IMG/VR virus record: IMGVR_UViG_3300020048_000022
DNA: 38,731 nucleotides
Source of the DNA: an uncultured virus (IMG/VR IMGVR_UViG_3300020048_000022)
Taxonomy: Duplodnaviria; Heunggongvirae; Uroviricota; Caudoviricetes
Reading direction: 5' to 3' (one strand)
Shown here in pieces: positions 10,965 to 36,919 of this stretch. The notes under the pieces are model-generated. The model worked only from the letters and a program-made list of their open reading frames with translations. It did not search any database and was not told where the DNA came from. The position numbers and the translations under genes were made by a program. The stretch's first letter is position 1. Each line of letters opens with the position of its first letter.

Positions 10965-13900
10965 TTAAATAGTTTTCTTACTTTGTGAATAAGCTGGAGA
11001 AACTAATGAAGTTTTAGTATAGCTTCCAGTTACAAGAACATCAAGAGAAAATAAATCCTCGTTCTTTACTTGTATATCTATTCCTATCTTCTTACTGTAT
11101 GTAATATTTTTAAGATTACCAGCAGTTCTCCATCCCCCAATAAATCCTAATTTATCTTGAGCTCTCATTTGAAAAATCAGTGGAACTGTTATTGAATTCT
11201 CTTGTCCAAACTCTAATGTCTTTTTAGCTAATTGTGTTGACCCTTCTATTTGTATTGCAGTGTGTGATGTTGGTCCTAAAAATAAATAAGATCCACAAGA
11301 GTACTTACCACATAGGAACTCGTCAGAATCTAAGAATCCTAATTTATTAGGATAAGCATTATCATCAATACCAAATACTGATCCTGAATTAGCTCCGTAA
11401 TATTCTAATTGTTGTGTGGAAAGACTTTGAGAACTTGCGGGAATTGAAGAAGTTATATTGGTATCTACCTCAAATCCTAAAGCATGTCTAAATGACGGAT
11501 AAGTCATATTTCCTGGGCCAGTTACAATGGGTCTTTCTAAATCAACAAAAGAATTTGCCGATCCGTCGTTAATATCGGGATGTGAAATATGTACACAGAA
11601 TTCATTCAAATTACCATTTCCGTCAGGTATTGGTAAAGTTGTATAATTACCATCCCAAATGTTTACATTAGCAGAACCTAAAGGAGTTGTAGCTGGATCA
11701 AACGGCATAAGTATGCCATCACTATTTATAGGTAATCCAGTAGTTCCTGTATTAATATTCCAAGATGGTAAATTTGGTGGGGTGAAGTATAAATCCTCAT
11801 CTAATCCCACACTCTTATATCTAGTATAAACAAATTGAGAATAAGCATTAGCACTTTGATATCCTGATGCTTGTATAAATGCACCAGGGGTAGGTGTTGT
11901 TCCGACTATAACATTAGCGGAGTTAATACCTGATAGTTGTATTGGTGTTTCTCCGTATTTTCTGTTGTTGTTATAATCGCTCTGTCCGCTTATTGTAATA
12001 GGAGCTTTAACCCCTTGTCCTCCTGGTATTAAAGAGGAAAGTTCTAAAGGAGTAGCAGCTTCATTTCTTAATTCTAGATAATAAATAACTGTTGCAATTT
12101 TACCTTTATTACTAGGATTTGAAAGATCTATTAATTGATCGTAATATCCAGCAAATAAATTAACAGTGCTACCAGGATTTATTTTATTAGAAGTACCACC
12201 ACTTCTTATATAAACTCCCAAAGTTCCTTTTGCTTTAGCAATAAGAGCTCTTAATGATTGTAATTCATTGTCTATTTGAGTTAACTTTTGAAATAGATCT
12301 AAAGCTTTACCTCCTCCATCAAAGAATCCAGATGCAATAGAATTGGAATTGTGTGCATAAAATTTATCACCGGAAGTAAATTGAGTGGATAAATGTTGAT
12401 CTAATCCTTTAGCTTGTAAATCTGCTTGTACTTTAACTACAGCCTGATCCATGCTGTTCTGTGCTACGAAAGATCCATTGTCTATCGATACAACCAAATT
12501 AGCAGGGAATTCCACTATAGCAGAAGTTGACCAATCAGAGGTCAAAGGATTAGTAGGCCAACCAGCTTCAGATATAGATTGAACTTGTATTTCAACCTTC
12601 TCACCCTTGGTTATAGCAATATCTAATTGATTTATATTTACTGTATTAGCATCGCTAACATCTTCAATTTGCCAAACATATGTTCCAGTATTAGAATCAT
12701 ATACTTTCTTTCTTAAATCGCTTGTAAACTGTGTCCAATTTGTAAATTGTCCTGTCTTTTGCACTCCGTTATTGTCTACGTAGTCGATCTGAGTTGTGCC
12801 ATTAGAATTTCCCGTTAATGAAAGGTATCTATATCTTACATTAAATTGAACAATATTCTGTTCTCCAGTTTTAGAATCAATAATTGGCTCAGGTATAGGC
12901 CAAAATCCTCTAACTCTATATTTAGGTGCTTCCGTTAATTCAGGGGTTGCAATAGTTAGATTATTAATTTCAGTGATTGTGGTAGCTAATAAATCCGTTC
13001 TACTTGCTTTATCCTTAGCTAATGAAGTGATCTTATCGTTTAATTTCTTGTATTCTGCAGTAGGTGTTTTCCCTGTAGATGTTGTTGTTAACTCAGAAAG
13101 TTGTTTTCTTGTCTGGTCTATTGCTCTGTCTATTGAACCCACTTCATTTTTCAAGGAAGTCTTAATCTTAATCTTATCTTTAAAATCTACACTTTCTTTA
13201 GAATCAGTTATCTGTGAATTAACTTTAACTACCTTAAAGTTTCCGGGAGAAACTACAGGTGCAGAAGGGGTTTGTCCATAAACTGCAGGAATAACATTCT
13301 CTTTAGCAGAAGATATAAAGATCTTACTAAAATCTGAAACCTGTGAAGTATAGAATTCAGATAATGTCTTAACACCATCGGAGGTGTTTATTTGTAGCTC
13401 ATTAGATAAGAAACAAATACCAGGACTATATTTACTAGATGCAACATTAAAATCTCCATCAATAGATTTAATAAAAATAGCTTGTCTCTCATCAAATCCC
13501 ACATTAATATCTACAGTTCTATTAGATAGAACATTAGAGTAAATTGTAAGGGAGTTATTACCTATTTGTATAGCATCAAATCCAAATAGTCTTTTTAGAA
13601 CTATAGTTTGGTTTGTAGTGTCTATTGATGTTATTTCGTATTTAGTTCCTCCTGATGTTATTAAAGTGTCGCCTTTTGTTAAAGTCCTAGAATCAGTTGA
13701 GGTTGCTAATGTATCTGTGTATCTTAATGTGTTTAACTTATACTTTCTAACAGTATTAGTTGATGTGATACCATTTTCAGTTACTTGTGTTTCTTCGTCA
13801 AATATTCTAAGAACTCCAAAAGATCCAATATATCTTATTGTTCTTAATTCTAATTCATTTATTTGCTCATCGGTAAAGTATTGAATTCCTTGGCTTTTTA

Positions 13901-17691: not shown

Positions 17692-18366
17692 ATGACTACA
17701 GGAAGCAATTGGACACAAAAAAGGAAACCTAAAAATCCTATTAAATTTAAAATCAATCTAAATGAAGAACAGAAAGAAGCTAAAGCAATCATTTTAGCAA
17801 ATCCTGTTAGTGTTCTTAAAGGAGCAGCAGGATCAGGTAAAACGTTATTAGCAGTACAAATAGCTCTGGATATGTTATTTAATAGGGAGATTGAAAAACT
17901 AGTTATTACTAGACCCACAGTAGCAAAAGAAGATATAGGATTTCTTCCTGGCGATTTAAAAGAAAAAATGGATCCTTGGTTAGCTCCTATATACGCTAAT
18001 CTAGAAATGGTCTATGATAAAACTAAAATTGAAAAATTACTTAGCGAAGGAATTATTGAAATCCTACCATTTCCTTTTATGAGAGGTAGAACTTTAGTTA
18101 ATTCTTGTGTGATTGTAGATGAAGCACAAAACGTAACAATGAGTCAAATGGAAATGGTTCTAGGAAGACTTGGAATTGGTTCTAAAATGATAATATGTGG
18201 AGACACATCTCAGATAGATTTAAAGAATAAGAAAGACTCAGGATTAGATTTCATGAATACACTTGCTGCAAGAGTTGAAGGTGTTAATGTGATAACTCTT
18301 AAGAAAAATCACAGACATCCTATTGTACCTGCAATGTTAGATGTTTACCGTGAATATACTACATGA
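17692..18366 (+). CDS. phoH: PhoH-family ATPase
   Basis: Walker A GAAGSGKT, ITRP, IGFLPGDL, FMRGRT, Walker B IVDEAQN, GDTSQIDL and RHPIV: the full PhoH motif set. Confidence 0.97.
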   Translation: MTTGSNWTQKRKPKNPIKFKINLNEEQKEAKAIILANPVSVLKGAAGSGKTLLAVQIALDMLFNREIEKLVITRPTVAKEDIGFLPGDLKEKMDPWLAPIYANLEMVYDKTKIEKLLSEGIIEILPFPFMRGRTLVNSCVIVDEAQNVTMSQMEMVLGRLGIGSKMIICGDTSQIDLKNKKDSGLDFMNTLAARVEGVNVITLKKNHRHPIVPAMLDVYREYTT

Positions 18367-25390: not shown

Positions 25391-27088
25391 TTAGTTTCCT
25401 GTATTTAGTGAGCTTTTTAATATGCTATTTACTCTAGTATTATAAGTTACTGGTACAATAGATCTAATATCTATATTTACAGATGATAAAGAACTCATAC
25501 CAGCTCCATAGTCGTAATAGATACCATTTCTATCTTCCCATCCGCCGGATATAACTACAATCTCATCTTTACCCATAACAATATCTCCAAATTCATCAAA
25601 TCCTATATCAGGGGAATTTGGACTTTGTAATTTAGCTGCTTCGTTAGATTCACCTACGAAATAAAGGGAAACCGAATCCACTCCTGAAATAGATTCAATC
25701 GCTGCAATCAAATCGGATCTAGGTATTTTATCTCTTCTTCTTATGTTAAGGAAGTAATCACTTAGAATACTAGTTATTTGACTTTTTATTGTATCAGGGT
25801 CATTACCTTCGAATATAGTTAAAGCAATATTCACAACATACTTAGTAAGAACCGGATCTAATATTTTTACAACAGTAGTAACTATTTTCTGTCCGCTCTC
25901 ATCTAATAATTGATAAATTCTATCTCTTTGCGCATTAGTTAATTTGAATCTAGAAAGAGGAATATCAAAATATGTTTCGTTACTTTTTAATGTGAGCTGA
26001 ATGTCGGGAACAAGAATTAAATAAATAATATTATCGTCATCTAAGTATTGATCATCAAAAGTAGTAAATGCTTCTATTATCGAAAACTGTCCAAATTTTT
26101 CAAAGAATGTTATATAATTTGTAGGATTGGCTAAAACAAAACTTCTAGATGTTTTAGGTGCAATAAGTCTTGTTAAATCTATAGGCTCTTGACTGGCACC
26201 TAATTGTGGAGCTATCGTACAATTAACCTGTAGAACTTCGCTTAGTGTTACGCTTCTTCCAAATATATCAGTTCCGTCGGAATCAAATTTAAAAAGAGCT
26301 TGTGATGAATCATCAAGTAATAAATTACCGTCTGCTCCAGAGCATTCTAAATAGTCAACTTCTATTATTGCTCCTGAAGGAGGAGGAAATCCAAAATCAA
26401 CAGTACCAAAGAAAACATCTATACCAGATATTAAAGAGCTTTTTACCATATAGCCTCTTGCATTTCTTGGTATATCATATAGAGAATCGTATTTCTTCCA
26501 TGTATTACCGTTTACCCTAACATCAACTTCAAAATTTTCTATTCCTGATGTACCTCTTGCTGATATATTATAGCTTTGTAATTTTCCACCAGTCCCTGTA
26601 TACTGATTAGTATTTAATACGCCTTCTATTACTGAAGCAGATAAAGTTGATGCTCCGTCAAGATTTAGCCTAACATATTCTTGCCCTAATTTAAGAAGGT
26701 ATGTTTTACCATTATTTATACATTTTACTTGTGAATTATTAGGTATAAGTACTGCTCCACCTCCGATATCTTCTAGACCTTTACCGTTCCATTTTGTTAC
26801 GATCTCACCTTTTGCTGCTATAGATCTTGTCGGGTTATGTCCTGCTAATGCTGCCAATCCGTATATAGAAGATTCTCTTGTTGCAGTATTTATATTAAGC
26901 TCAGTGATTGAATCTTCAATAAAGAATAATATAAATTGTGATAAGTTATCTAATACGAATATTATCTGTCCCCAAACAGAAGCAACAGTAAATAACTGTT
27001 CAGACATTCCATATCTTGCTTGTATTAAATCAAAAGTTTGAGATAATAAATCTGATATCTTGGCTTTGTTTTTATTTAATAAATCCAT
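25391..27088 (-). CDS. Baseplate wedge subunit, T4 gp6/baseplate-J-like
   Basis: ELNINTATRESSIYGLAALAGHNPTRSIAAKG, VFFGTVDFGFPPPSGAIIEVDYLECSGADGN and RSDLIAAIESISGVDSV match gp6-like patterns. Follows the gp25-like gene. Confidence 0.85.
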   Translation of the reverse strand: MDLLNKNKAKISDLLSQTFDLIQARYGMSEQLFTVASVWGQIIFVLDNLSQFILFFIEDSITELNINTATRESSIYGLAALAGHNPTRSIAAKGEIVTKWNGKGLEDIGGGAVLIPNNSQVKCINNGKTYLLKLGQEYVRLNLDGASTLSASVIEGVLNTNQYTGTGGKLQSYNISARGTSGIENFEVDVRVNGNTWKKYDSLYDIPRNARGYMVKSSLISGIDVFFGTVDFGFPPPSGAIIEVDYLECSGADGNLLLDDSSQALFKFDSDGTDIFGRSVTLSEVLQVNCTIAPQLGASQEPIDLTRLIAPKTSRSFVLANPTNYITFFEKFGQFSIIEAFTTFDDQYLDDDNIIYLILVPDIQLTLKSNETYFDIPLSRFKLTNAQRDRIYQLLDESGQKIVTTVVKILDPVLTKYVVNIALTIFEGNDPDTIKSQITSILSDYFLNIRRRDKIPRSDLIAAIESISGVDSVSLYFVGESNEAAKLQSPNSPDIGFDEFGDIVMGKDEIVVISGGWEDRNGIYYDYGAGMSSLSSVNIDIRSIVPVTYNTRVNSILKSSLNTGN

Positions 27089-27089
27089 A

Positions 27090-27461
27090 TTATATTATTT
27101 TAATTCCCAATATAGGGTTACCTTTTATAGCAAAATCAATAACACAAGCATCTCTAGTCTCACCCTTAAAGAATCCAACATTAAAGTCAACATTATATTT
27201 ACTTGATGCTAACGGAACATATGTTATTAAATGTAATCTTATTGCTCTTTCTAGAGTTGTCTGATCCACATTAAAGTCAAATAATAAACCCTCTAAGTCT
27301 ATACCAAAAAAAGGATCCCCTAGAACTTCTCCGGGAGTAGTTAACATACACTGCTTAATCATACCGATTAGTATTTCTACTTCATCGTCAGTATGTAATA
27401 ATCCTTCTTTGTATCTAGGATCATCTGGTGTTCTAGGATAAATTTCTGAGAATCTTGCCAT
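27090..27461 (-). CDS. Baseplate wedge/sheath initiator, T4 gp25-like (GPW/gp25 family)
   Basis: IKQCMLTTPGEVLGDPFFGIDLEGLLFD signature, 123 aa. Confidence 0.9.
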   Translation of the reverse strand: MARFSEIYPRTPDDPRYKEGLLHTDDEVEILIGMIKQCMLTTPGEVLGDPFFGIDLEGLLFDFNVDQTTLERAIRLHLITYVPLASSKYNVDFNVGFFKGETRDACVIDFAIKGNPILGIKII

Positions 27462-27509: not shown

Positions 27510-28289
27510 TTAGTTCCACTGCAAGAAGTATGAAGGAGTGTTTTCGTCTTTGATCATTTGCATGATCTCAGCTTTTTCTGTAGTTCCTAAAGTTTGTATA
27601 TTATTATAGTTAACTCTAACACCTCCTGGTAAATTATATTCGAAAGTACCTAATAGTCTACCAATATTAATTTTAGCTTCAGCAAGACAAAATCTTACAA
27701 ATAGTTCGTCATCATAAAGATCTTCTTCTGGTATTGCAATATAACCTCTAACCCCAACATCAGTACCAGAAAATAAAGTGGATGAACTTCCTCCATCAGT
27801 TGCTCCTGATCTATTAGGATCTCTACCGTTAATTGTTAGTTTTTTAGTATTCTTGTTAAAGTTAAAAGCGTAGGTTTCTAATAAATAAGCTTTAGCTAAA
27901 TCAAAGAATGAATAAAGTACAGTACGATAAACCAAGTTATCTCCAGCAAATGGTGATAGCATAAGCTCGGATCCTAATAATTTAGAATCTCCAAAATCTT
28001 TATCAGGTGTACCTGTAAGACCCGATCCACCAACTTCTCTAACATCATATACAGATACCACACAAGATGGTAATTGGATCTGTCTTGTTGCTCTAAAAGC
28101 AGCAGCAGAGAATAAGTCTTTTCCTAATACAAATATTCTATCTTCTACTGCATATTGATAATTATCATAAAAATAAGCTCTAGCTCTTTTTATAATTCTT
28201 TTTATTTCCTGGTCATTTAAGTTGTATGGTAATGCACAAGAATGAGATATATCATCTCTAATTTCCTGAATTAAGTCTGCTTCCGTCAT
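27510..28289 (-). CDS. Neck/head-tail adaptor protein, T4 gp13-like
   Basis: C-terminal FVRFCLAEAKINIGRLLGTFEYNLPGGVRVN...EKAEI parallels the gp13 LPGGV region. Helical N-terminus LNDQEIKRIIKRA. Confidence 0.8.
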   Translation of the reverse strand: MTEADLIQEIRDDISHSCALPYNLNDQEIKRIIKRARAYFYDNYQYAVEDRIFVLGKDLFSAAAFRATRQIQLPSCVVSVYDVREVGGSGLTGTPDKDFGDSKLLGSELMLSPFAGDNLVYRTVLYSFFDLAKAYLLETYAFNFNKNTKKLTINGRDPNRSGATDGGSSSTLFSGTDVGVRGYIAIPEEDLYDDELFVRFCLAEAKINIGRLLGTFEYNLPGGVRVNYNNIQTLGTTEKAEIMQMIKDENTPSYFLQWN

Positions 28290-28294
28290 TTTAA

Positions 28295-29737
28295 TTAGTT
28301 ATTTGATTCGAAGTTAGTACCAGGAATTCCTGATGGCTTACTGTTATTAATACTAAATCTAACAGGTTTAGATAACGTTTCACCGTCATTTCGATTAGGG
28401 AATCCTTTCTTCTTGGAGCTTCCTTTCATTTTCTTATCATCCTCTGCATCTTTAACTATTTCAGTATCTGGAGAAATAGTAGCAAGTTTTCCAATATAGC
28501 CTGATCTAATTATACCACCAAATACTTCACAATTGATTTCTTTTTCTTTATTATCTATATAAGTTTCATGTACTACATTACTAAACATAATATCCGAATA
28601 CATGATCTTAGATCTCTTAATTTCATTATTAGTAATCAAATCACAATCTTCAATCGCACAGTCGTTAAGATCACACGAAAACAGTCTACAGTCTAATATA
28701 TTTCCAGAGATTTCACTATTAAGAATGTCATAATCTTTAAGAAGATAAGCTCTAGTAGTTTTCACATCTTTTAATTGAAATTTACCTAATGAGCTATCAT
28801 AATTAATCATACCTTCTTTAATACCATTCTCTACGATAATATCATAAAGAATCTCTCTGATAGTCAAGAAAAATGTTCTAACTATCTGGGGATCAGATTT
28901 AAGATCGACCATTATGTTTAAGTGTGGATAATTCTTTTGGAAAGTATCAGGATCTATAAACGTAGCTGAATTTTTATAGATCTCTCCTAAAAACATTTTA
29001 AGTATCTTTAAATCGTTATCAGAGAATGAATTATTAAACTTAAGTGTCTGTACAGTATAAGTTATTATATAGTCTATAATCTCTTTTATTGATGAGTACT
29101 TCTTTTGGTAGTCTTTACCTCCAAGATATCTTACCTCAAAATATCCATCGGGTAATTTAGTCATATTTATACCCATATTTTTTTCTACGGGTACTTCGAA
29201 AAGATTCTTATCGATAAATGAAATGTTTGATGGATCTACAAACTTATTAGCAGGTAATATTCTTTTGATTGATTTAGCATATAAAGAACCCGCTCTCTCA
29301 GGAAATCTTTTATAAATAACATTCTCATCAAATCCTAAAATAAATTTAAGGGGGTTTAGTTGAGATACCGGAGGAACCTCAGGGAATATAGAAGTATCAA
29401 CACTTACTCCAAATTGAAATGCACATTTCTTATCTGTGTAACCATTTAGATCAATCCATCTAAGGGTCTTTATAAGAATTGCTATAGCCTCAAAATAAGG
29501 AAGAGGACCCGTGATGAATTCTGTCATCTTGGATCCTCCTGAGTAATCTGGTTCTAATTTAAAAATATCCTTGGTCGGTTTAAAACCTGAATGATACTTA
29601 CTAAATAGAAGTATTTTTTTGCCTAAAGTTTTTCCTAAGGAATCCGCTATCTCATTTCTATTTAAGTTACTAAAGAACTCAAATTCAAACCCTAATTTAG
29701 CTGAGTAGAAAAAATCATTAGAAAGTAAATTAGCCAA
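28295..29737 (-). CDS. Putative amidoligase (COOH-NH2 ligase, Amidoligase_2-like) with a C-terminal beta-helix-like repeat; TTG start
   Basis: GFEFE, EPDYSG, EFITGP, TDKKCAFQFG and FEVRYLGG motifs in the family order. 5-residue periodic tail ILDCR-LFSCD-LNDCA-IEDCD. Confidence 0.65.
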   Translation of the reverse strand: MANLLSNDFFYSAKLGFEFEFFSNLNRNEIADSLGKTLGKKILLFSKYHSGFKPTKDIFKLEPDYSGGSKMTEFITGPLPYFEAIAILIKTLRWIDLNGYTDKKCAFQFGVSVDTSIFPEVPPVSQLNPLKFILGFDENVIYKRFPERAGSLYAKSIKRILPANKFVDPSNISFIDKNLFEVPVEKNMGINMTKLPDGYFEVRYLGGKDYQKKYSSIKEIIDYIITYTVQTLKFNNSFSDNDLKILKMFLGEIYKNSATFIDPDTFQKNYPHLNIMVDLKSDPQIVRTFFLTIREILYDIIVENGIKEGMINYDSSLGKFQLKDVKTTRAYLLKDYDILNSEISGNILDCRLFSCDLNDCAIEDCDLITNNEIKRSKIMYSDIMFSNVVHETYIDNKEKEINCEVFGGIIRSGYIGKLATISPDTEIVKDAEDDKKMKGSSKKKGFPNRNDGETLSKPVRFSINNSKPSGIPGTNFESNN

Positions 29738-29740
29738 TTT

Positions 29741-30850
29741 TTATACTTCTGTTAATTGTATTTTGAGAGTAGACGTGTCTACGCTCGAGATTGAACAATT
29801 AACCAATTGGCCAACCTCATAGTTGTTAATAGAGTTTACCAATTTTTCTTTTTCAATAAGTCCAGATAATCCATTTTCAAGTTTAATGAACACACCGAAT
29901 GTCTTTAATTTAGTAATCTCTGCTTTATATATTTTCAATTCGGTATTTTCCCCTAAAACTTCAGCAGAAGAATCTTTTAAATTTTGGATGTTCTTTAACT
30001 TCTCATTTGGTTCTAAAATAGAAAGACCGATTCTTTGTGCATTTTTGATATCTACAACGTAGAATTCGACAGAATCACCAGTTTGTAAAGTTTCTAATTT
30101 TGTTCTATTATTTTCATCAATTGAAATAATACCAGTGTAAATCTCTTCCCACTCAACAAAAATGTTATTTCCTGAAACTCCAGTGACTTTACCTTCATAT
30201 CTTTGAGAGAATGAAAGATTTTTAACCTCAGAGTCAATAATTTTCTTAAGATATTTCTTAAACGAAACAACGAAAATATCTCTCTTCTGATCATAGATCT
30301 CAATCATGACAGTAAGTTCCTTTCCTACATAATCAGCAAAGTTCATGATTCGATTTGCAGCTGCTAAACTTCCAGGTAAGAAACATTCGATTCCAGAAAG
30401 ATCCACCATGAACCCACCGTTACAAACATTCTTAACTCTCACTTTAAATGCGCAATCTTCATCTTTGATAGATCTATGCAATTCTCTTTTTAAAGCTTTC
30501 TCGTATCCAGCAGATACCGATCCATTAAATGCTCCAGAAGCATCTTTATGAATAACAACATCTAAAACCTGTCCGCTTGTTATCTCTATTGCAGGATATC
30601 CAAGCTTTCTCATATGCTTTTCTTCCTTCTTAGTATCAATGATAATAGTCTGGCCAAAAGCAGTTTCGCCTAATGCTAATCCTTTTTCGCCGTCGTATCC
30701 AGTAACAACTATTCTTTCTGAACTATTCTCTACTAAATCTTTACCTGACATCTTCGTGTCGGTCTCAGGGAAAGTTCCTGAATAAAGATCTTCTAATCTT
30801 TCTCTTTCGTTTGTTTCGTATTCGAAACAGCTAAAATTTTTATTTTTCAT
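29741..30850 (-). CDS. rpsA: Phage-encoded ribosomal protein S1 (bS1) homologue, about 4 S1 domains
   Basis: VKNVCNGGFMVDLSGIECFLPGSLAAANRIMNFADYVGKELTVMIEIYDQKRDIFVVS matches bS1 domain 2. Further S1 folds YEGKVTGVSGNNIFVE and ITKLKTFGVFIKLENGLSGLI. Confidence 0.85.
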   Translation of the reverse strand: MKNKNFSCFEYETNERERLEDLYSGTFPETDTKMSGKDLVENSSERIVVTGYDGEKGLALGETAFGQTIIIDTKKEEKHMRKLGYPAIEITSGQVLDVVIHKDASGAFNGSVSAGYEKALKRELHRSIKDEDCAFKVRVKNVCNGGFMVDLSGIECFLPGSLAAANRIMNFADYVGKELTVMIEIYDQKRDIFVVSFKKYLKKIIDSEVKNLSFSQRYEGKVTGVSGNNIFVEWEEIYTGIISIDENNRTKLETLQTGDSVEFYVVDIKNAQRIGLSILEPNEKLKNIQNLKDSSAEVLGENTELKIYKAEITKLKTFGVFIKLENGLSGLIEKEKLVNSINNYEVGQLVNCSISSVDTSTLKIQLTEV

Positions 30851-30906
30851 TTTATTTAGAGTTTGTATCTATTTTAGTATTAAGTTCCAAGAAAATTTCC
30901 AAGTTT

Positions 30907-33900
30907 TCAATATTTTTTTCCCCCGAAAGCTTTCTTGAGTTCCGATGGTAATTCGGGTATAGGATAAACAGGATCTCCTGCTCCTAAAAAGAATTTAAAA
31001 AGACCCGATACATCGGCAGCACTTCTTAAAAATTCATCTATATAAACCACATAGTAAACATTCTTTAGGCTCATTCTTCTCCATACAGGATGATCATCTG
31101 ACATAGCTAAAGGATTTATAATATTAACAACATTTCTTCCTAACAATACTGCTAAAGGCCAAGGTATCTTAGATAATATATTAGATGCTACTTCTATTGT
31201 TGGTAAAGTTATTTTATCAGATAGAGGGGTTTTAGGAAGGGATTTGAAGTATTTCCAAAATAAGCTATAAACTATTCTAGCTGGCGGAGGTGCTCCCATT
31301 CCTATTAATGCTTGCTCTACCATATCTGTTGGTCTTGCTAAAGGTAAAATAGGAATTTTAGCTATACTTAAGAAATCAGGTATATTTGGTGAATTGGGAT
31401 CTACAACATCCCTAACCATATTCCTTACTATCTTTTGTATATCAGATGGCTCAAGATTTATAAATTTAGAGGATTCTGGATCATTTATCTCAGGTATCAT
31501 TTTCTCTAATAATCCGTTATCTAATAAAGTTCCTATAGATTTTTTTATAAATGTTTTAATTACACCCCCTGGTATTGTCACTTGTACGATACCCCCAAGA
31601 CCAGGTATTTGTGCAACTTGATCCTGCTTCGGGGGGAAAACAGTGGGAAGTTCAAAAGCGGATATTGCATTACCAAATCCTCCGTTTAAAGCTTCAAGAC
31701 AGCATAAGGGTCCTTCGGGATGAGGAAATTTAGATATTAAAGGTTCCTCCCTGTCTAAAGGTCTTTCAGGATCAAATGCTCCTCTTCTACTTAATCCTAA
31801 TTTTTTAGCTACTAATTTTTTTAAATCCTTAACTCTTATTATTAATACAGGATCCTCACCTTCGTATCTCACATATTTAGCAAAATCCTCTCTCGTATAT
31901 TCAGCTTTTACCATACCCTCCATCAATCTAAGGTAAATGGCTTCTATTATAGGATTTTTTAATTTTATAAACTTTAATGCCTTAGGTGCTGAGTTAGTTA
32001 GCTTTATAGGAGGGAATAAGAAATTACCTTGATAATCACATTCCTCTATTATAGAAAAAGATCCTTTTCTCATTTTTTTAACAACAGAGAATTTATTTCC
32101 TCTTAATATTATGTTGGTAATAACTACTGCTGTTGACTTAATCTCTTTTACTAAATTTGAGAATTCGTCCCGATCCATTAATCTAGGGTCTTTCTTAATT
32201 CTAAGAAATATCTTATTAATATTCGAAACGTCTCTATTTTCAAAGAAGTATTGAGGTGGACATATAATTTTCATAAGCTTGAGAACCTCTCGCATTTCAT
32301 CTTTGAAATTTATATAGCCTCCACATTTTATAGGAACAAAGTTGGCTTTCATCTCTTTAAGAATTCTTAAAGATTTAACAATTCCAGGAATATCTATTTT
32401 AAGTTTATCTTTGTCCTTGGGAAAGTATATTGATTTAGGATTTGGTATGCCTTTATCTAAATAATCATTAATAAGAGTTTTAAGTACATCCTTTCTTTGT
32501 CTGACTATAGCTTTTAATTCCTCATCCTCATCTAGAAAATTAGGAGTAGGAAGATCTAATAAAGCAGCTTTTTTCTCATACTCTTTTTTCTTTTCTCTCC
32601 TCTTCTCTTTAACGTCTTTTTCTTTCTGTTGTAAATTTCTAAGAGCTTGTGTATCACCGGGAGGTGGTACGTTATCAAGAATCTTAGTTAAGTTTGCTTG
32701 AATATCACTAAGAATTCTGTCTGGTGAATCTAAGTTATCGTTACCAAATCCTGGAAAAGGAATTAGCTTATCTGGAATACCAAAAGTAAGAGCTTGCTTA
32801 ATCTTCTCTAAAGGATCTTTTAATTGCGGATCTGACTTTCTAGGTATAAATCTAGGTCCTCTTATTCCAGTAAGAAATAAAGAACTACCCGTTATAAATT
32901 CTTTTAAATAAACTAAAGGTGTAGGCATAAATCCACCAATTAAAGGAATGAATATAACCAGAATACCCAGATTTAATGGCAGTGGAATAACTATAGGTGG
33001 TATAGTAGTCCAAATCATAGGGAGAGGAATTCTTATATATGGCTGTCCATCTATAGGATTAGGAAATGGAATAGGTATAAAAGCTGGTGGAAGATATCCA
33101 ACTGGCCAATATTTTAATCCCAATCTAACACTAGGTCCAGCTGCTAAGAAATAGGCTGGATCCTCTATCGGGGGTAAACCATTAGGGTATGGTAAAAGTC
33201 CAACTTTAGTAATATCTTTACAAAATTGTTTCCACCAGCACTTCTGAAACATAGTCGGGCAATCAGAACTTGGAGGTGAAGACATTAAATAATTAGATGA
33301 TTTAAAATCCGATCCCGCAGGTCCGCAACATACAGGAGGACAGTTCTCTGGGTCATCAGCATCGTTGCTACCACCTCCTGCGCATTTAACATCAGAGAAG
33401 CTTTTACCTACGCTATCGGGAGTTAAACTCTTTTCAATTTCCGCGCTTTTTTGTGCTACGTATAATATAGTGTCCTGTATTTGTTCATATTTCTGTTTGA
33501 CGTCAAAATAATTTTCAAATATTCTAACTCCTATAACATCTCCAGTAGGTAAAGTTTTACCTAATCCCTCCCCGGCTTTTCTTGCTTCAGTCTTTAGATC
33601 TTCTATAAAAGGATCAATATATTGTTTTTTGCTTGCTTGATATTTAGCATCCCATTTGGGTTTAAAGTTTCCCCAGAAATCAGTAAAAGCTTGATTTGGT
33701 TCTCCCTCCTCGGTGAAACTAGAAGGTCTAACTTTTGAAGGATCCCTAGAGTCGTTATCTCCTCTTTCTTCTTGTGAGAAGAATAGCCAAGGCGAAGCAG
33801 ATTTTTCTATAAGCTGTCCATAAAGAATTCCTCTATCTTTTACTATCTTTTGTATAATATCAGATTTTGAATCATTCTTTTTTATGATAGTCTCTATAAA

Positions 33901-36006
33901 GTCATAAAATTTAGCAACATCAGGGGTTCCTGTTTTAAGATTGTTGATCTTAATGAATTGATAACTTTTTAAATACGAAGGCGTAGTATCTTTTAATAAT
34001 CCGCCATTTCCTGCATATTCGTTTCCTATTTTTATTTTTTCACCATCGGTCTCATTAACTTCTTCCAGAGGATCTTTGCTTGAATTTTGAAAAGATATAC
34101 CAGCTGGCTTTTTAACTTTCTTGTAAGGAAGTGGTGAACCATAATCGCTCATGAAAGAGAGATCAAATTGCAATTCACCTATTTTTTTATTGAATTCTAC
34201 TTTATTAAATCTGACAGAAAAATCTTTTATTTTTTTAATAAACTCGTATCCATAAGAATCGTAAGTATTATCAGTAGCAACATTAAATAAAGGACTTTTA
34301 AAAACCCTTTCACTAATATCTAGATTAGTCTCACCTTGTTGATAAACATCACTTGCGGTGGTAGTACTAGGAATAAAAGCGTTTTCTAAATCTGAATAAT
34401 TTACTCTTTTATTAAGTTTGGTACCTAAAGAATCTACTGTAGAATTTCTTAATGCTATTGATTGATCCTTATCTATATTAAGGCTTTCTATAAAATTCTT
34501 CTGTATTAATATAGCTCTAATAGTATCAACATTTGATTCGAAAGATGTAACACCATCTGCTACCGGCCAAGATTGATTATCACTGTTATATGTTATTGGG
34601 GATTTGCTAGCTTCTATTTGGTAATTAAATAAAGCGGTTAATTCATCATTAGTTAATTCAGTATCAGGAATTGTTAGAAGAAAAAGATCATTAGTAAATA
34701 TTGAATTATTCTCAATAAATAAAGCCTTATCATTATTATATTTTTCTTGCTGGTCTTTAATCAGCTTCTCTAATTCTATTGATTGGTCATTGTACGTCAG
34801 TACACTTATAGCAAGATCCAAATTACTAGGATCTCCGCCTTCGTTAACAGGTATTCTATTTTTCCAATTTTCAGATAATGATTTTTGATACTCGTATATT
34901 ATTTCATAATGATAGTATATCTCTTCTAGACTTTTTTCTATCATTTGCCATCTAGCTAATAATTTACTGTCGTCTTCTATTTTTTTAGATTTCGTTAATG
35001 CAGAATCTATACATGCTTCAATAGCATCAACATCTACTGGTGCTGGCTCTGGATCAGTTTCGTCTGGATTATTATCAGAAAAATCATAGGCAGGAGGATC
35101 ACAAAAATCTTCAGTCACATCATTAAATGTTTCTTTAGTTACTATAGGATCTCCTGTAATAGGATCTTCAGGAACTCCAGGTAAACAATCTTCATCAACT
35201 ATTGGATCGTCACCATCAGGAAAGAAATTAGAGTCATAGTCATCTATTCTATCTGATTTTGTATTCTCGTCAATGTCTTCAAAATCGCAAGGTTTTGAAT
35301 TGATGTTCTGTTTATTTAGAATATCATTAATCTTATCTAGAGCTTTACTTATACTTTGTTCTTCTCCTCCTATCTTAACATGAACTACTTTTTTACCAGA
35401 CATTATGAATTCTAATGGGATTTTAAACCCAAGAACATTCATGTCTCTTTTTTTTCTAGATCCTGAATTTGATGGCTTGCCAAGAATTAATGGATCTAGA
35501 TTATCAAAGATCTTCTCGTTTACATTTTCTAAAAATTTTGAATCTTTATTTTTTAAGAAACCAGTTATACCTCTTGATGGTATTTTGAAATCGTACTTAA
35601 AAGAGGTAGAATTCTTTACTGTTATTCCGAGATCTTTCTCTGTTATTGCTGAATTGTTTTTAAATTCATCAGAGGCTATTAATTCATTATATAATTTTGG
35701 ATTTTGTTTTTTTAAAGATTCAAGTAATATAACGCTATATAAATCATCCCCTTCATAATTACAAGCCAATTCTTCTATCCTTTTCATAGGAATAGGAGGC
35801 TTTTGTGGTTCTAAGCTTGCTAGTATATTCGCTACTTCCTTTTCGCTTTTTTCTAATTCTTTATTAAACCCTTCATCAGATTGAAGATCTTCATAAGGAC
35901 CATTTATTCCTTCTCCTCCAGTTATAATACTTACTATTTCTTCAGTAGTAGTTTTTTCAAAATCCTTACCTAGGAGTTTATCAATTCTTTCCTCTATATT
36001 TGACAT
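30907..36006 (-). CDS. Large hypothetical protein (1699 aa) with a central Cys-rich and Pro-rich hydrophobic segment; probably virion-associated
   Basis: Starts 1 nt after the gp5-like stop. Acidic N-half, basic C-half. Contains CPPVCCGP and IPIPFPNP...IPPIVIPLPLNLGILVIFIPLIGGFMP. Confidence 0.7.
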   Translation of the reverse strand: MSNIEERIDKLLGKDFEKTTTEEIVSIITGGEGINGPYEDLQSDEGFNKELEKSEKEVANILASLEPQKPPIPMKRIEELACNYEGDDLYSVILLESLKKQNPKLYNELIASDEFKNNSAITEKDLGITVKNSTSFKYDFKIPSRGITGFLKNKDSKFLENVNEKIFDNLDPLILGKPSNSGSRKKRDMNVLGFKIPLEFIMSGKKVVHVKIGGEEQSISKALDKINDILNKQNINSKPCDFEDIDENTKSDRIDDYDSNFFPDGDDPIVDEDCLPGVPEDPITGDPIVTKETFNDVTEDFCDPPAYDFSDNNPDETDPEPAPVDVDAIEACIDSALTKSKKIEDDSKLLARWQMIEKSLEEIYYHYEIIYEYQKSLSENWKNRIPVNEGGDPSNLDLAISVLTYNDQSIELEKLIKDQQEKYNNDKALFIENNSIFTNDLFLLTIPDTELTNDELTALFNYQIEASKSPITYNSDNQSWPVADGVTSFESNVDTIRAILIQKNFIESLNIDKDQSIALRNSTVDSLGTKLNKRVNYSDLENAFIPSTTTASDVYQQGETNLDISERVFKSPLFNVATDNTYDSYGYEFIKKIKDFSVRFNKVEFNKKIGELQFDLSFMSDYGSPLPYKKVKKPAGISFQNSSKDPLEEVNETDGEKIKIGNEYAGNGGLLKDTTPSYLKSYQFIKINNLKTGTPDVAKFYDFIETIIKKNDSKSDIIQKIVKDRGILYGQLIEKSASPWLFFSQEERGDNDSRDPSKVRPSSFTEEGEPNQAFTDFWGNFKPKWDAKYQASKKQYIDPFIEDLKTEARKAGEGLGKTLPTGDVIGVRIFENYFDVKQKYEQIQDTILYVAQKSAEIEKSLTPDSVGKSFSDVKCAGGGSNDADDPENCPPVCCGPAGSDFKSSNYLMSSPPSSDCPTMFQKCWWKQFCKDITKVGLLPYPNGLPPIEDPAYFLAAGPSVRLGLKYWPVGYLPPAFIPIPFPNPIDGQPYIRIPLPMIWTTIPPIVIPLPLNLGILVIFIPLIGGFMPTPLVYLKEFITGSSLFLTGIRGPRFIPRKSDPQLKDPLEKIKQALTFGIPDKLIPFPGFGNDNLDSPDRILSDIQANLTKILDNVPPPGDTQALRNLQQKEKDVKEKRREKKKEYEKKAALLDLPTPNFLDEDEELKAIVRQRKDVLKTLINDYLDKGIPNPKSIYFPKDKDKLKIDIPGIVKSLRILKEMKANFVPIKCGGYINFKDEMREVLKLMKIICPPQYFFENRDVSNINKIFLRIKKDPRLMDRDEFSNLVKEIKSTAVVITNIILRGNKFSVVKKMRKGSFSIIEECDYQGNFLFPPIKLTNSAPKALKFIKLKNPIIEAIYLRLMEGMVKAEYTREDFAKYVRYEGEDPVLIIRVKDLKKLVAKKLGLSRRGAFDPERPLDREEPLISKFPHPEGPLCCLEALNGGFGNAISAFELPTVFPPKQDQVAQIPGLGGIVQVTIPGGVIKTFIKKSIGTLLDNGLLEKMIPEINDPESSKFINLEPSDIQKIVRNMVRDVVDPNSPNIPDFLSIAKIPILPLARPTDMVEQALIGMGAPPPARIVYSLFWKYFKSLPKTPLSDKITLPTIEVASNILSKIPWPLAVLLGRNVVNIINPLAMSDDHPVWRRMSLKNVYYVVYIDEFLRSAADVSGLFKFFLGAGDPVYPIPELPSELKKAFGGKKY

Positions 36007-36007
36007 A

Positions 36008-36919
36008 TTATCCTCCTGTAACTCCTATACCAGTAGCTCCAGTAGCTCCAGTAGCTCCATTAGCTCCCGTAGCTCCAGTAGCAGGTAATGATACAGGACT
36101 ATTATTTTGCGCTGGTGTAGTGGGAAGATCCGGTGTATTTTCTCTAGTAACTCTTACAGTTTGACTTGTAGCCAATTGTTCAAAACTAGTAGCTAAAGTT
36201 GAATTAACTCCTGGCGTAGCTGGCATTTTACTGTCTATTGATATAGCTAGTTTTTTTAAGAAGTCCCAAAGAGGCTCAGCGCATACAGCAGAAAAAACAG
36301 GTGAATGTCCTAAATTAGTTGTCTTACCGTCCATCCAAACTTCTTCTGATGAATGCTTAATTCTGGTAACTGCAGTATTCTCTATTTCTTGATCTGCATA
36401 TTTTGTTATTTTACCTCCTTTTAATTCTATAGAAGCAGTGTCATCCGCATGAGTTATTAAAATAGAATTGTCGTTTCTTATTATTATTTTAGAATCCTTC
36501 AAATCTATTACAAGTCCTTTCTCTACCGTATAGAACATCTTTAATCTTTCTATACCGTCATATATTACAGAATGAGCACCATCGTAACTAGCTCTTATTT
36601 CATCCACCAAATCTGGTGATAATTCTTGTACCGCTTTATATTCTGGGCTATAATAGTTTCCGTTATTAAATTGAACATGGACAACAGATCCTAATTTAGG
36701 TACAGACATTCTACCTGATCCACCTCCTAATCCATAACTCATTTCAAATCTTTGGTGTGACCAAGGAAGACTTGTATCTTCTATCTGATCAAATAATCCA
36801 AACACCCTTATCTTTGCTCTTCCTCTAAATTCAGGATCTTTATTATCGACCACTACACCAAGATAATGAGATATCTCAGTATTTGATCTTTCTAATTTTT
36901 CTCTGTCAACTAAGCTCAT
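36008..36919 (-). CDS. Baseplate central spike, gp5/VgrG-type N-terminal OB fold, with no lysozyme domain
   Basis: YLGVVVDNKDPEFRGRAKIRVFG...LPW...SVPKLGSVVHVQFNNGNYYSPEY followed by short beta-strand repeats. Confidence 0.88.
   Translation of the reverse strand: MSLVDREKLERSNTEISHYLGVVVDNKDPEFRGRAKIRVFGLFDQIEDTSLPWSHQRFEMSYGLGGGSGRMSVPKLGSVVHVQFNNGNYYSPEYKAVQELSPDLVDEIRASYDGAHSVIYDGIERLKMFYTVEKGLVIDLKDSKIIIRNDNSILITHADDTASIELKGGKITKYADQEIENTAVTRIKHSSEEVWMDGKTTNLGHSPVFSAVCAEPLWDFLKKLAISIDSKMPATPGVNSTLATSFEQLATSQTVRVTRENTPDLPTTPAQNNSPVSLPATGATGANGATGATGATGIGVTGG
36030..36083 (-). repeat. Six tandem 9-bp units (ccagtagct on +) encoding a GAT/GAN collagen-like tail of the spike
   Basis: ccagtagct x3, ccattagct, cccgtagct, ccagtagca; protein ATGATGANGATGATGATG. 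Confidence 0.9.

Follow-up and report, generated by a model that had tools for sequence, protein, structure and literature searches.

A four-domain homologue of ribosomal protein S1 in the tail and neck gene block of a probable Bacteroidota phage

We describe a gene for a diverged, four-domain homologue of the bacterial ribosomal protein S1 (bS1) in an uncultured member of the Caudoviricetes, represented by the IMG/VR virus record IMGVR_UViG_3300020048_000022, the whole of which (38,731 nucleotides) was analysed and is referred to here as the window. The window probably stems from a large uncultured phage of Bacteroidota, and the S1 gene lies among its tail and neck genes. The gene derives from bacterial bS1 and is under purifying selection, with the second domain, one of those through which bS1 docks on the small ribosomal subunit, the most constrained. 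Among the functions considered, we lean modestly towards a late-expressed substitute for host bS1, which would dock on the host 30S subunit and aid translation of phage mRNAs that lack a Shine-Dalgarno (SD) sequence.

Results

The S1 gene is an open reading frame (ORF) of 369 codons with an ATG start on the minus strand (29741..30850), as is every gene coordinate given below unless stated otherwise, and it belongs to a run of co-oriented genes with a G+C content of 31-38%. A sequence-only reading of the window had proposed S1 homology from two strings, both of which are present in this frame (GGFMVDLSGIECFLPGS at residues 145-161 and ERERLEDLYSGTF at residues 15-27), and the homology is borne out by database matches that rule out chance. 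The Pfam S1 family (PF00575) was matched over three stretches with an E-value of 3.5e-18 and 66.2 bits, above the gathering threshold of 22. The NCBIfam rpsA model TIGR00717 was matched at E 3e-24, with residues 88-366 co-linear with model positions 56-340 of 516. In a sequence search of the PDB, the best matches were chains of Escherichia coli bS1 (E 4e-20), in which residues 87-202 of the phage protein correspond to E. coli residues 59-175, that is, the end of domain 1 (D1) and domain 2 (D2).

An AlphaFold2 model built from 41 family members, with a mean predicted local distance difference test (pLDDT) of 83.2, comprises an N-terminal helix (residues 13-26) and four five-stranded OB barrels connected by long linker helices. 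The barrels, with pLDDT values of about 80-90, span residues 43-111 (D1, 30518..30724), 135-196 (D2, 30263..30448), 217-277 (D3, 30020..30202) and 307-368 (D4, 29747..29932). The phage protein has four S1 domains in its 369 residues, not the six of Gram-negative and Bacteroidota bS1, and its last two barrels are the two more divergent S1 folds that had been read from the letters. The top Foldseek matches of the model were structures of 30S-bound E. coli bS1 (9gut_B, E 4e-21), and the part comprising helix, D1 and D2 gave template modelling scores of 0.70-0.71, normalised to the target, with 9guq_B and 8peg_Z.

The origin of each domain was compared by hhalign, in which the profile of the 41-member phage alignment was set against each of the six domains of bacterial bS1; the bacterial alignment held 31 sequences of the phylum to which a Saprospirales-labelled genome (see below) belongs, one from Acinetobacter and one partial E. 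coli sequence. Phage D2 matched bS1 D2 with a score of 72.6 (E 2e-13), the next best domain reaching 23, and as the single domain that matches its bS1 counterpart distinctly, it is the only one that is demonstrably orthologous. F147 and F157 in this domain correspond to E. coli F120 and F130, which belong to the OB2 aromatic patch at the mRNA exit, and are invariant in 41/41 family members. Phage D3, which includes the best Pfam stretch (residues 216-278), found its counterparts in D6 (47), D5 (36) and D4 (34). For phage D4, which carries an FGVF...GLxGL motif and has weak matches to the S1 domains of RRP5 and Spt6, they were D5 (62), D4 (52) and D6 (51). Judged by these profiles, D3 and D4 are generic S1 domains of the RNA-binding type and not specifically bS1 D3 and D4. 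The sequence-only reading, which held that the mRNA-binding part had been shortened and remodelled, was right in that two RNA-binding-type domains occur instead of four; the two that occur map to D6 and D5 and not to D3 and D4.

The likeness to Bacteroidota bS1 (model NF004953, about 580-600 residues, six S1 domains) lies in the N-terminal helix motif, the co-linear D1-D2, the D2 signature GGF...FLPGS, the acidic character (isoelectric point of 5.2 for the phage S1) and the fold match to ribosome-bound E. coli bS1. The two nonetheless differ in several respects. The open frames of Bacteroidota bS1 have at least 580 residues and six domains, and 6/6 sampled Bacteroidota bS1 score 760-889 bits on NF004953, for which the cut-off is 720, whereas the phage protein reaches 64.5 bits. 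The phage protein carries some 13 extra residues, forming a loop, between its helix and D1. Loop 2 of D1 also departs from the bacterial form: ETAFGQ lies opposite bacterial GxKSEG, which is replaced by a phage-specific loop with conserved E62, G66 and Q67.

The N-terminal helix motif (YETNERERLEDLYSGTF, codons 11-27, 30770..30820) belongs to the type seen in Bacteroidota bS1. When phage and bacterial sequences were aligned jointly, FEYETNERERLEDLYSGTF at the phage start fell opposite the pre-D1 segment of Bacteroidota bS1 (for example GNYSDEDRQKFEDMYAGTF), and the gammaproteobacterial N-terminus is worded differently. With independently built profiles, the first 34 residues matched the Bacteroidota bS1 N-terminus with a score of 36.8 (P 6.6e-8), and residues 2-113, comprising helix and D1, matched the bacterial N-terminus and D1 with a score of 52.3 (E 5.4e-9). 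Y11 and Y23 are invariant within the phage S1 family. The N-terminal helix of E. coli bS1 anchors on uS2 through an aromatic pair spaced i and i+4, F5 and F9 (D'Urso 2023), and in the joint alignment, inspected by eye, this pair lies opposite phage L19 and Y23. The helix that the sequence-only reading had pointed out is therefore upheld in sequence and in predicted structure.

A second type of N-terminal motif occurs in the wider family. The first 42 residues of Flavobacterium johnsoniae bS1 form a helix-loop-helix, of which residues 11-20 (FLANFNWHNF) touch uS8 (PMC13000457), and an FDW-type motif resembling this helix was found within the first 90 residues of 28 of the 114 full-length representatives of the wider phage S1 family, against 2/114 in each of two internal control windows. 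The motif was also present in 7/31 sampled Bacteroidota bS1. A profile alignment between two FDW-bearing sets scored 45 (P 9e-8), which carries little weight given that both sets were preselected for the motif. The helix pattern of the window's protein was found in 0/114 wider representatives, in which the helix is of the YAQELYDLY type.

Two side observations concern this end of the protein. In the Prevotella phage Lak-C1 (MK250029.1), an S1-like ORF at 11521-12630 encodes 369 residues, with a long insert between D1 and D2 and, as read by eye, an N-terminal FNW followed by YAQELYDAY and only three OB domains. The second concerns F32 of E. coli uS2, on which the bS1 helix stacks: in five sampled Bacteroidota genomes, this position of uS2 is occupied by Leu instead of Phe, and the bS1 N-termini of these genomes share the wording (D/N/S)(L/E/D)EY(T/S)xx(E/D)LAx(M/L)xxLY, which may reflect co-variation of the bS1-uS2 contact.

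Constraint is unevenly distributed along the protein. Region 131-203, containing D2, has 35 invariant columns out of 73 and a mean pairwise identity of 0.79, the highest of all regions, compared with 0.64 for D4 (14/65 columns invariant), 0.57 for D3, 0.52 for D1 and 0.45 for the N-terminal 30 residues. The ratio of nonsynonymous to synonymous substitution rates (dN/dS; Nei-Gojobori, eight pairs) lay at 0.05-0.18 across the whole gene and at 0.011-0.039 within D2; saturation of dS was frequent. The gene is under purifying selection.

Relatives of this protein are numerous. A word-indexed search returned 384, of which the best 120 share 49-100% identity with the window's protein, are nearly all 366-394 residues long and lie on contigs of up to 321 kb. 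An exhaustive search of representatives clustered at 50% identity returned 1750 at E<=1e-3 and 365 at E<=1e-10, the best 150 being nearly all 340-450 residues long. None of the 109 wider-family representatives scanned reached any rpsA cut-off (the top score being 189 bits against 624), and where matched, they cover rpsA model positions of approximately 10-345, corresponding to D1-D4. No longer or fused form of the S1 protein was found among the longer proteins searched, in which one S1-domain protein of 983 residues was unrelated, and PHROGs contained no family matching S1.

A tree of D1-D2 (150 columns, quick method) was computed from 60 of the 114 full-length representatives and 7 close members, together with 31 Bacteroidota and 2 gammaproteobacterial bS1 sequences; a Listeria frame was left out as the wrong ORF. 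The 67 phage-family rows formed one clade with a Shimodaira-Hasegawa-like approximate likelihood ratio test (SH-aLRT) value of 100, apart from the 31 Bacteroidota bS1. The S1 family is old within its phage lineage. Because bS1 was sampled in the tree from Bacteroidota and two gammaproteobacteria, it is the N-terminal motifs that point to a Bacteroidota origin; the ranking of NCBIfam sub-models does not favour a Bacteroidota donor, with NF004953 scoring below the general models.

In Bacteroidota, whose ribosomes make no use of Shine-Dalgarno sequences, bS1 is believed to contribute more to initiation than it does in model bacteria. By eye and unscored, 15 of the 16 ORF starts in the window have A-rich leaders and no SD-like motif, the exception being an AGGAGG before an ORF of 1699 codons immediately upstream of S1. 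The leader of S1 itself (30851..30906, 56 nucleotides) is likewise A-rich and has no SD. Such starts match both Bacteroidota usage and the huge phages with a possible ribosomal protein S1 (rpS1) described by Al-Shayeb et al. (2020).

Within the S1 leader, just past the stop of the 1699-residue ORF and approximately 45 nucleotides before the S1 start, lies CTTGGAAATTTT (30892-30903, minus strand), which is conserved in 10/11 aligned loci. This element could be an S1-specific promoter or translational operator. A repeated late promoter was considered and rejected, since the window holds one exact copy and 15 matches at <=2 mismatches against 12.2 expected. Promoter-like sites in general were not enriched (50 against 52.4 in shuffled sequence) in a scan for the sigma-70 type, a type that Bacteroidota do not use. 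No terminator-like site was found on the minus strand between 27000 and 38731, which makes co-transcription of S1 with the tail genes plausible.

In the order of transcription, the genes of this block are a 588-residue ORF, a spike gene, the 1699-residue ORF, S1, a 480-residue ORF, a 259-residue neck ORF, a gp25-like wedge gene, a gpJ-like wedge gene and very large fibre-like ORFs. The placement of S1 between spike-associated and neck genes, as first read from the window, holds, with the 1699-residue ORF on the spike side and the 480-residue ORF on the neck side. The baseplate spike or hub gene (36008..36919) was assigned by its gpV/gp5 OB domain (PF04717, 24.8 bits against 23.8; phrog_430, E 1.1e-13). 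The neck/adaptor-like gene (27510..28289) was assigned by phrog_211 (E 1.4e-6) and by a relative annotated as 'neck protein' in the Tenacibaculum phages PTm1 and PTm5. The two baseplate wedge genes (25391..27461) encode a gp25-like protein of 123 residues (phrog_261) and a gpJ/gp6-like protein of 565 residues (phrog_219, E 3.4e-25; weak Baseplate_J match).

The order S1, 480-residue ORF, neck and wedge was found in 25/25 close loci, with the 1699-residue ORF upstream in 24 and the 25th locus beginning at S1. The same order surrounds an S1 copy of 37% identity on a contig of 64 kb that had been binned into a Saprospirales genome, and S1 of the huge phage LR756500 (29% identical) has the same place between the spike and the ligase-like (480-residue) and neck genes, with two small opposite-strand ORFs inserted. 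In two distant subfamilies, where S1 is 28-33% identical to that of the window and contigs reach 405 kb, the order was found in 13/13 loci examined, which had been chosen for their long flanks out of 39 fetched. By contrast, no homologue of the spike, 480-residue or neck gene was found within 12 kb of S1 (at E 1e-3) in LR756502, LR756501 and Lak-C1, in which the ligase-like and neck genes are distant from S1. The cultured phages PAU, PTm1/5, pT24, MA9V and MaF61, whose tail modules are related, gave no S1 match by tblastn, and the S1 family profile gave none against the whole PAU record in a search run without a positive control.

The 64-kb contig binned with the Saprospirales genome carries a phage tail block and an S1 of 388 residues, and the same genome has a separate bS1 frame of 589 residues. 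The contig is either mis-binned or a hint to the host.

The 480-residue ORF (28295..29737) starts with TTG 3 nucleotides past the S1 stop and follows S1 in every syntenic locus seen. Its homologues in the phage database searched are confined to the six huge phages that also gave full-length S1 matches. PF12224 occurs in 12-29% of the members of its Atlas clusters and was matched by 5 of 17 relatives (best E 4.8e-4). The predicted structure (pLDDT 83.5) has weak Foldseek matches to glutamine synthetases (E 4e-4) and ends in a disordered basic tail (pLDDT <50 from residue 431). E18, the first Glu of a GFEFEF strand, is neither invariant nor nearly invariant in the 17 relatives. As a lead, we take the protein to combine a virus-specific domain like those of glutamine synthetase and Amidoligase_2 with a pentapeptide beta-helix.

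On the other side of S1, the 1699-residue ORF (30907..36006) has no Pfam, PHROG or Atlas match and is kept upstream of S1 in the close clade. Its N-terminal half is acidic, and a proline-rich hydrophobic stretch lies near residues 1000-1090. It shows 49-75% identity where S1 retains 65-90%, a faster rate of change than that of the genes around it, and is a possible tape-measure or ejection protein. Elsewhere in the window, between very large tail-fibre-like ORFs, a gene for a PhoH-like ATPase (17692-18366; PF02562, E 4e-64) is the only one on the plus strand.

Discussion

With the ribosome-docking end kept, the phage S1 probably sits on host ribosomes, and a late-expressed bS1 substitute that helps translate SD-less phage mRNAs is the function to which we give cautious preference. 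In the course of events that we infer, covering timing, 30S binding, RNA binding and any preference for phage mRNAs alike, S1 would be made along with the late structural genes, as its position suggests. The helix, D1 and D2 would then settle on the host 30S subunit where bS1 normally binds, at uS2 and the mRNA exit channel, a site that host bS1 is expected to leave readily, and the two distal domains would capture the A-rich, SD-less leaders of the phage. The outcome would be that initiation on phage late mRNAs is kept or raised when the demand for virion proteins is very large or when host bS1 is limiting or disabled. With ribosomes of F. johnsoniae, supplemental bS1 has been reported to give approximately 2-fold more initiation on SD-less mRNA.

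Several results weigh against this function. The score on TIGR00717 is 85.4 bits against a cut-off of 577, and every rpsA whole-protein cut-off is missed. Phage D1, correctly called degenerate by the sequence-only reading, matches bS1 D1 best, yet with a profile score of only 12.3, inseparable from the 11.3 for D5 and indistinguishable from other S1 domains. E. coli K43, which enters the zinc pocket of uS2 from loop 2 of D1 (D'Urso 2023), corresponds in the joint alignment to phage F65, the alignment of the diverged D1 being uncertain, and K117 of the OB2 patch corresponds to N144. The proposal that the docking part is retained has thus fared well for D2, through its orthology and both OB2 phenylalanines, and for the helix, through its profile match, and poorly for D1, which is barely recognisable and has exchanged K43 for F65. 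The clade of the window is mostly without the FDW helix, with 5/116 close members fitting a loose pattern. Neither distal domain has the canonical His of the RNA-binding motif 'GLxH' (D4 has E333 in its place, and D3 lacks it), so that RNA binding itself can only be presumed. The stem of the phage family in the D1-D2 tree is very long, at 2.31 substitutions per site, which is also consistent with a changed function. Furthermore, the position of the gene inside the virion block is unusually rigid, down to 28-37% S1 identity, a rigidity for which an accessory gene with free placement would have no need.

A protein acting on RNA away from the ribosome, whether as a chaperone or protector of transcripts, a cofactor of a nuclease or polymerase, or a coupling factor, is unlikely, though it deserves serious consideration. 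S1 domains are common outside ribosomes, on which ground Mizuno et al. (2019) treated S1 as ambiguous and excluded it, and whether the phage proteins act 'on or off the ribosome' was left open by Al-Shayeb et al. (2020). Parallels exist in the use of host S1 by T4 RegB and by Q-beta replicase; D1-D2 of bS1 also docks on the latter, and 4q7j_D and 4r71_F were among the fold matches of the phage protein. The generic nature of D3 and D4 and the scores far under the rpsA cut-offs are in keeping with such a role. It would not account, however, for the retained N-terminal helix of Bacteroidota type, for the FDW helix in relatives or for the strongest constraint falling on D2, the domain that is not an RNA chaperone. 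Much of the docking evidence would serve equally well for a decoy that occupies the bS1 site and lowers initiation on host mRNAs rather than stimulating that on phage mRNAs, and the presence of only two distal domains, both missing the canonical His, would suit it. We nevertheless regard a decoy as quite improbable: the phage's own genes are SD-less and should themselves need help of the bS1 type, late timing, as read from gene position, fits host shut-off poorly, and the good conservation of D4 argues for a working distal end.

A virion-associated or morphogenetic protein, whether an OB-fold tail part or assembly factor derived from bS1 or a protein packed and ejected with the DNA, is suggested above all by the rigid gene order (25/25 close loci, the Saprospirales-binned copy, LR756500 and 13/13 distant loci), and the failure to find fused or relocated forms of S1 among the longer proteins searched points the same way. 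Yet S1 stands apart from the spike, ligase-like and neck genes in LR756502, LR756501 and Lak-C1, the jumbo phages PAU, PTm1/5, pT24, MA9V and MaF61 build the same tail type with no S1 match, and a structural part would leave the ribosome-docking features without a reason; we therefore hold such a role to be very doubtful. More speculative still, the placement of S1 between the spike and large ORF on one side and the ligase-like and neck genes on the other, kept to 28% identity, would be explained if S1 travelled inside the virion and entered the cell together with the DNA, as a bS1 mimic that captures host 30S subunits before phage expression, or, as a variant, if the adjacent glutamine-synthetase/PafA-like ligase modified S1, a ribosomal protein or a virion protein; we consider this a long shot. 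Host contamination or a mis-assembled fragment of bacterial rpsA had to be considered since some 'phage' matches in databases are plainly bacterial rpsA, as shown by Acinetobacter, E. coli and Listeria records and by a cmk-rpsA-himD context. It is refuted by the same-strand phage tail genes that flank S1 in every locus examined, by the low rpsA score (85 bits where 577 are required) and by the clade separate from the 31 Bacteroidota bS1 with an SH-aLRT of 100.

The idea that a phage S1 could hijack initiation is not new and has been in print since 2020, when Al-Shayeb et al. (PMC7162821) reported a 'possible rpS1' in huge phages without recognisable SD sequences and proposed ribosome hijacking at initiation, noting up to six S1 domains and that true rpS1 is hard to confirm. 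The proteins of that study (LR756500-LR756504 and LR745206) are homologous to the S1 of the window, with 25-30% identity over 69-85% of the protein by tblastn, and in 15 records of Lak megaphages of Prevotella, the same search gave 33% identity over residues 110-284. The window's S1 fits this group, being a homologous protein with several S1 domains, from a lineage with related contigs of 248-405 kb and SD-less starts. Compared with the examples as presented in that paper, it has four domains, and the docking elements and fixed gene order are worked out here.

Other ribosomal proteins of phages offer partial parallels. The bS21 of freshwater Bacteroidetes phages (Chen et al. 2022, PMC9723584) is likewise a protein of the 30S platform and mRNA exit, is likewise encoded by large Bacteroidota phages among structural genes and has been proposed to be substituted late into host ribosomes; it differs in being another protein, and its late transcription with structural genes was measured. 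No bS21 gene was found in five viral records related to the window, of 95-248 kb and 33-85% completeness. The bS1 of the jumbo cyanophage PhiMa05 (ISME J 2026, PMC13157829) is likewise phage-borne and was discussed as taking the place of host bS1, but it is clustered with other ribosomal genes (ORFs 12-14; six in all) and comes from a Vampirovibrio-like host, whereas the S1 of the window stands alone in a tail and neck block. In the full-text literature, with subscription journals and unopened supplements outside its scope, we found no functional study of a phage-encoded S1.

The S1 of the window adds a sharper and testable description to this group rather than a discovery, and for the S1 family, an in vitro system of purified F. 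johnsoniae ribosomes and bS1 has been described (McNutt et al. 2023). If the phage protein is indeed a bS1 substitute, its docking end and two RNA-binding domains would constitute a natural minimal S1, which could reveal the parts of bS1 that select SD-less mRNAs and how viruses retune that choice.

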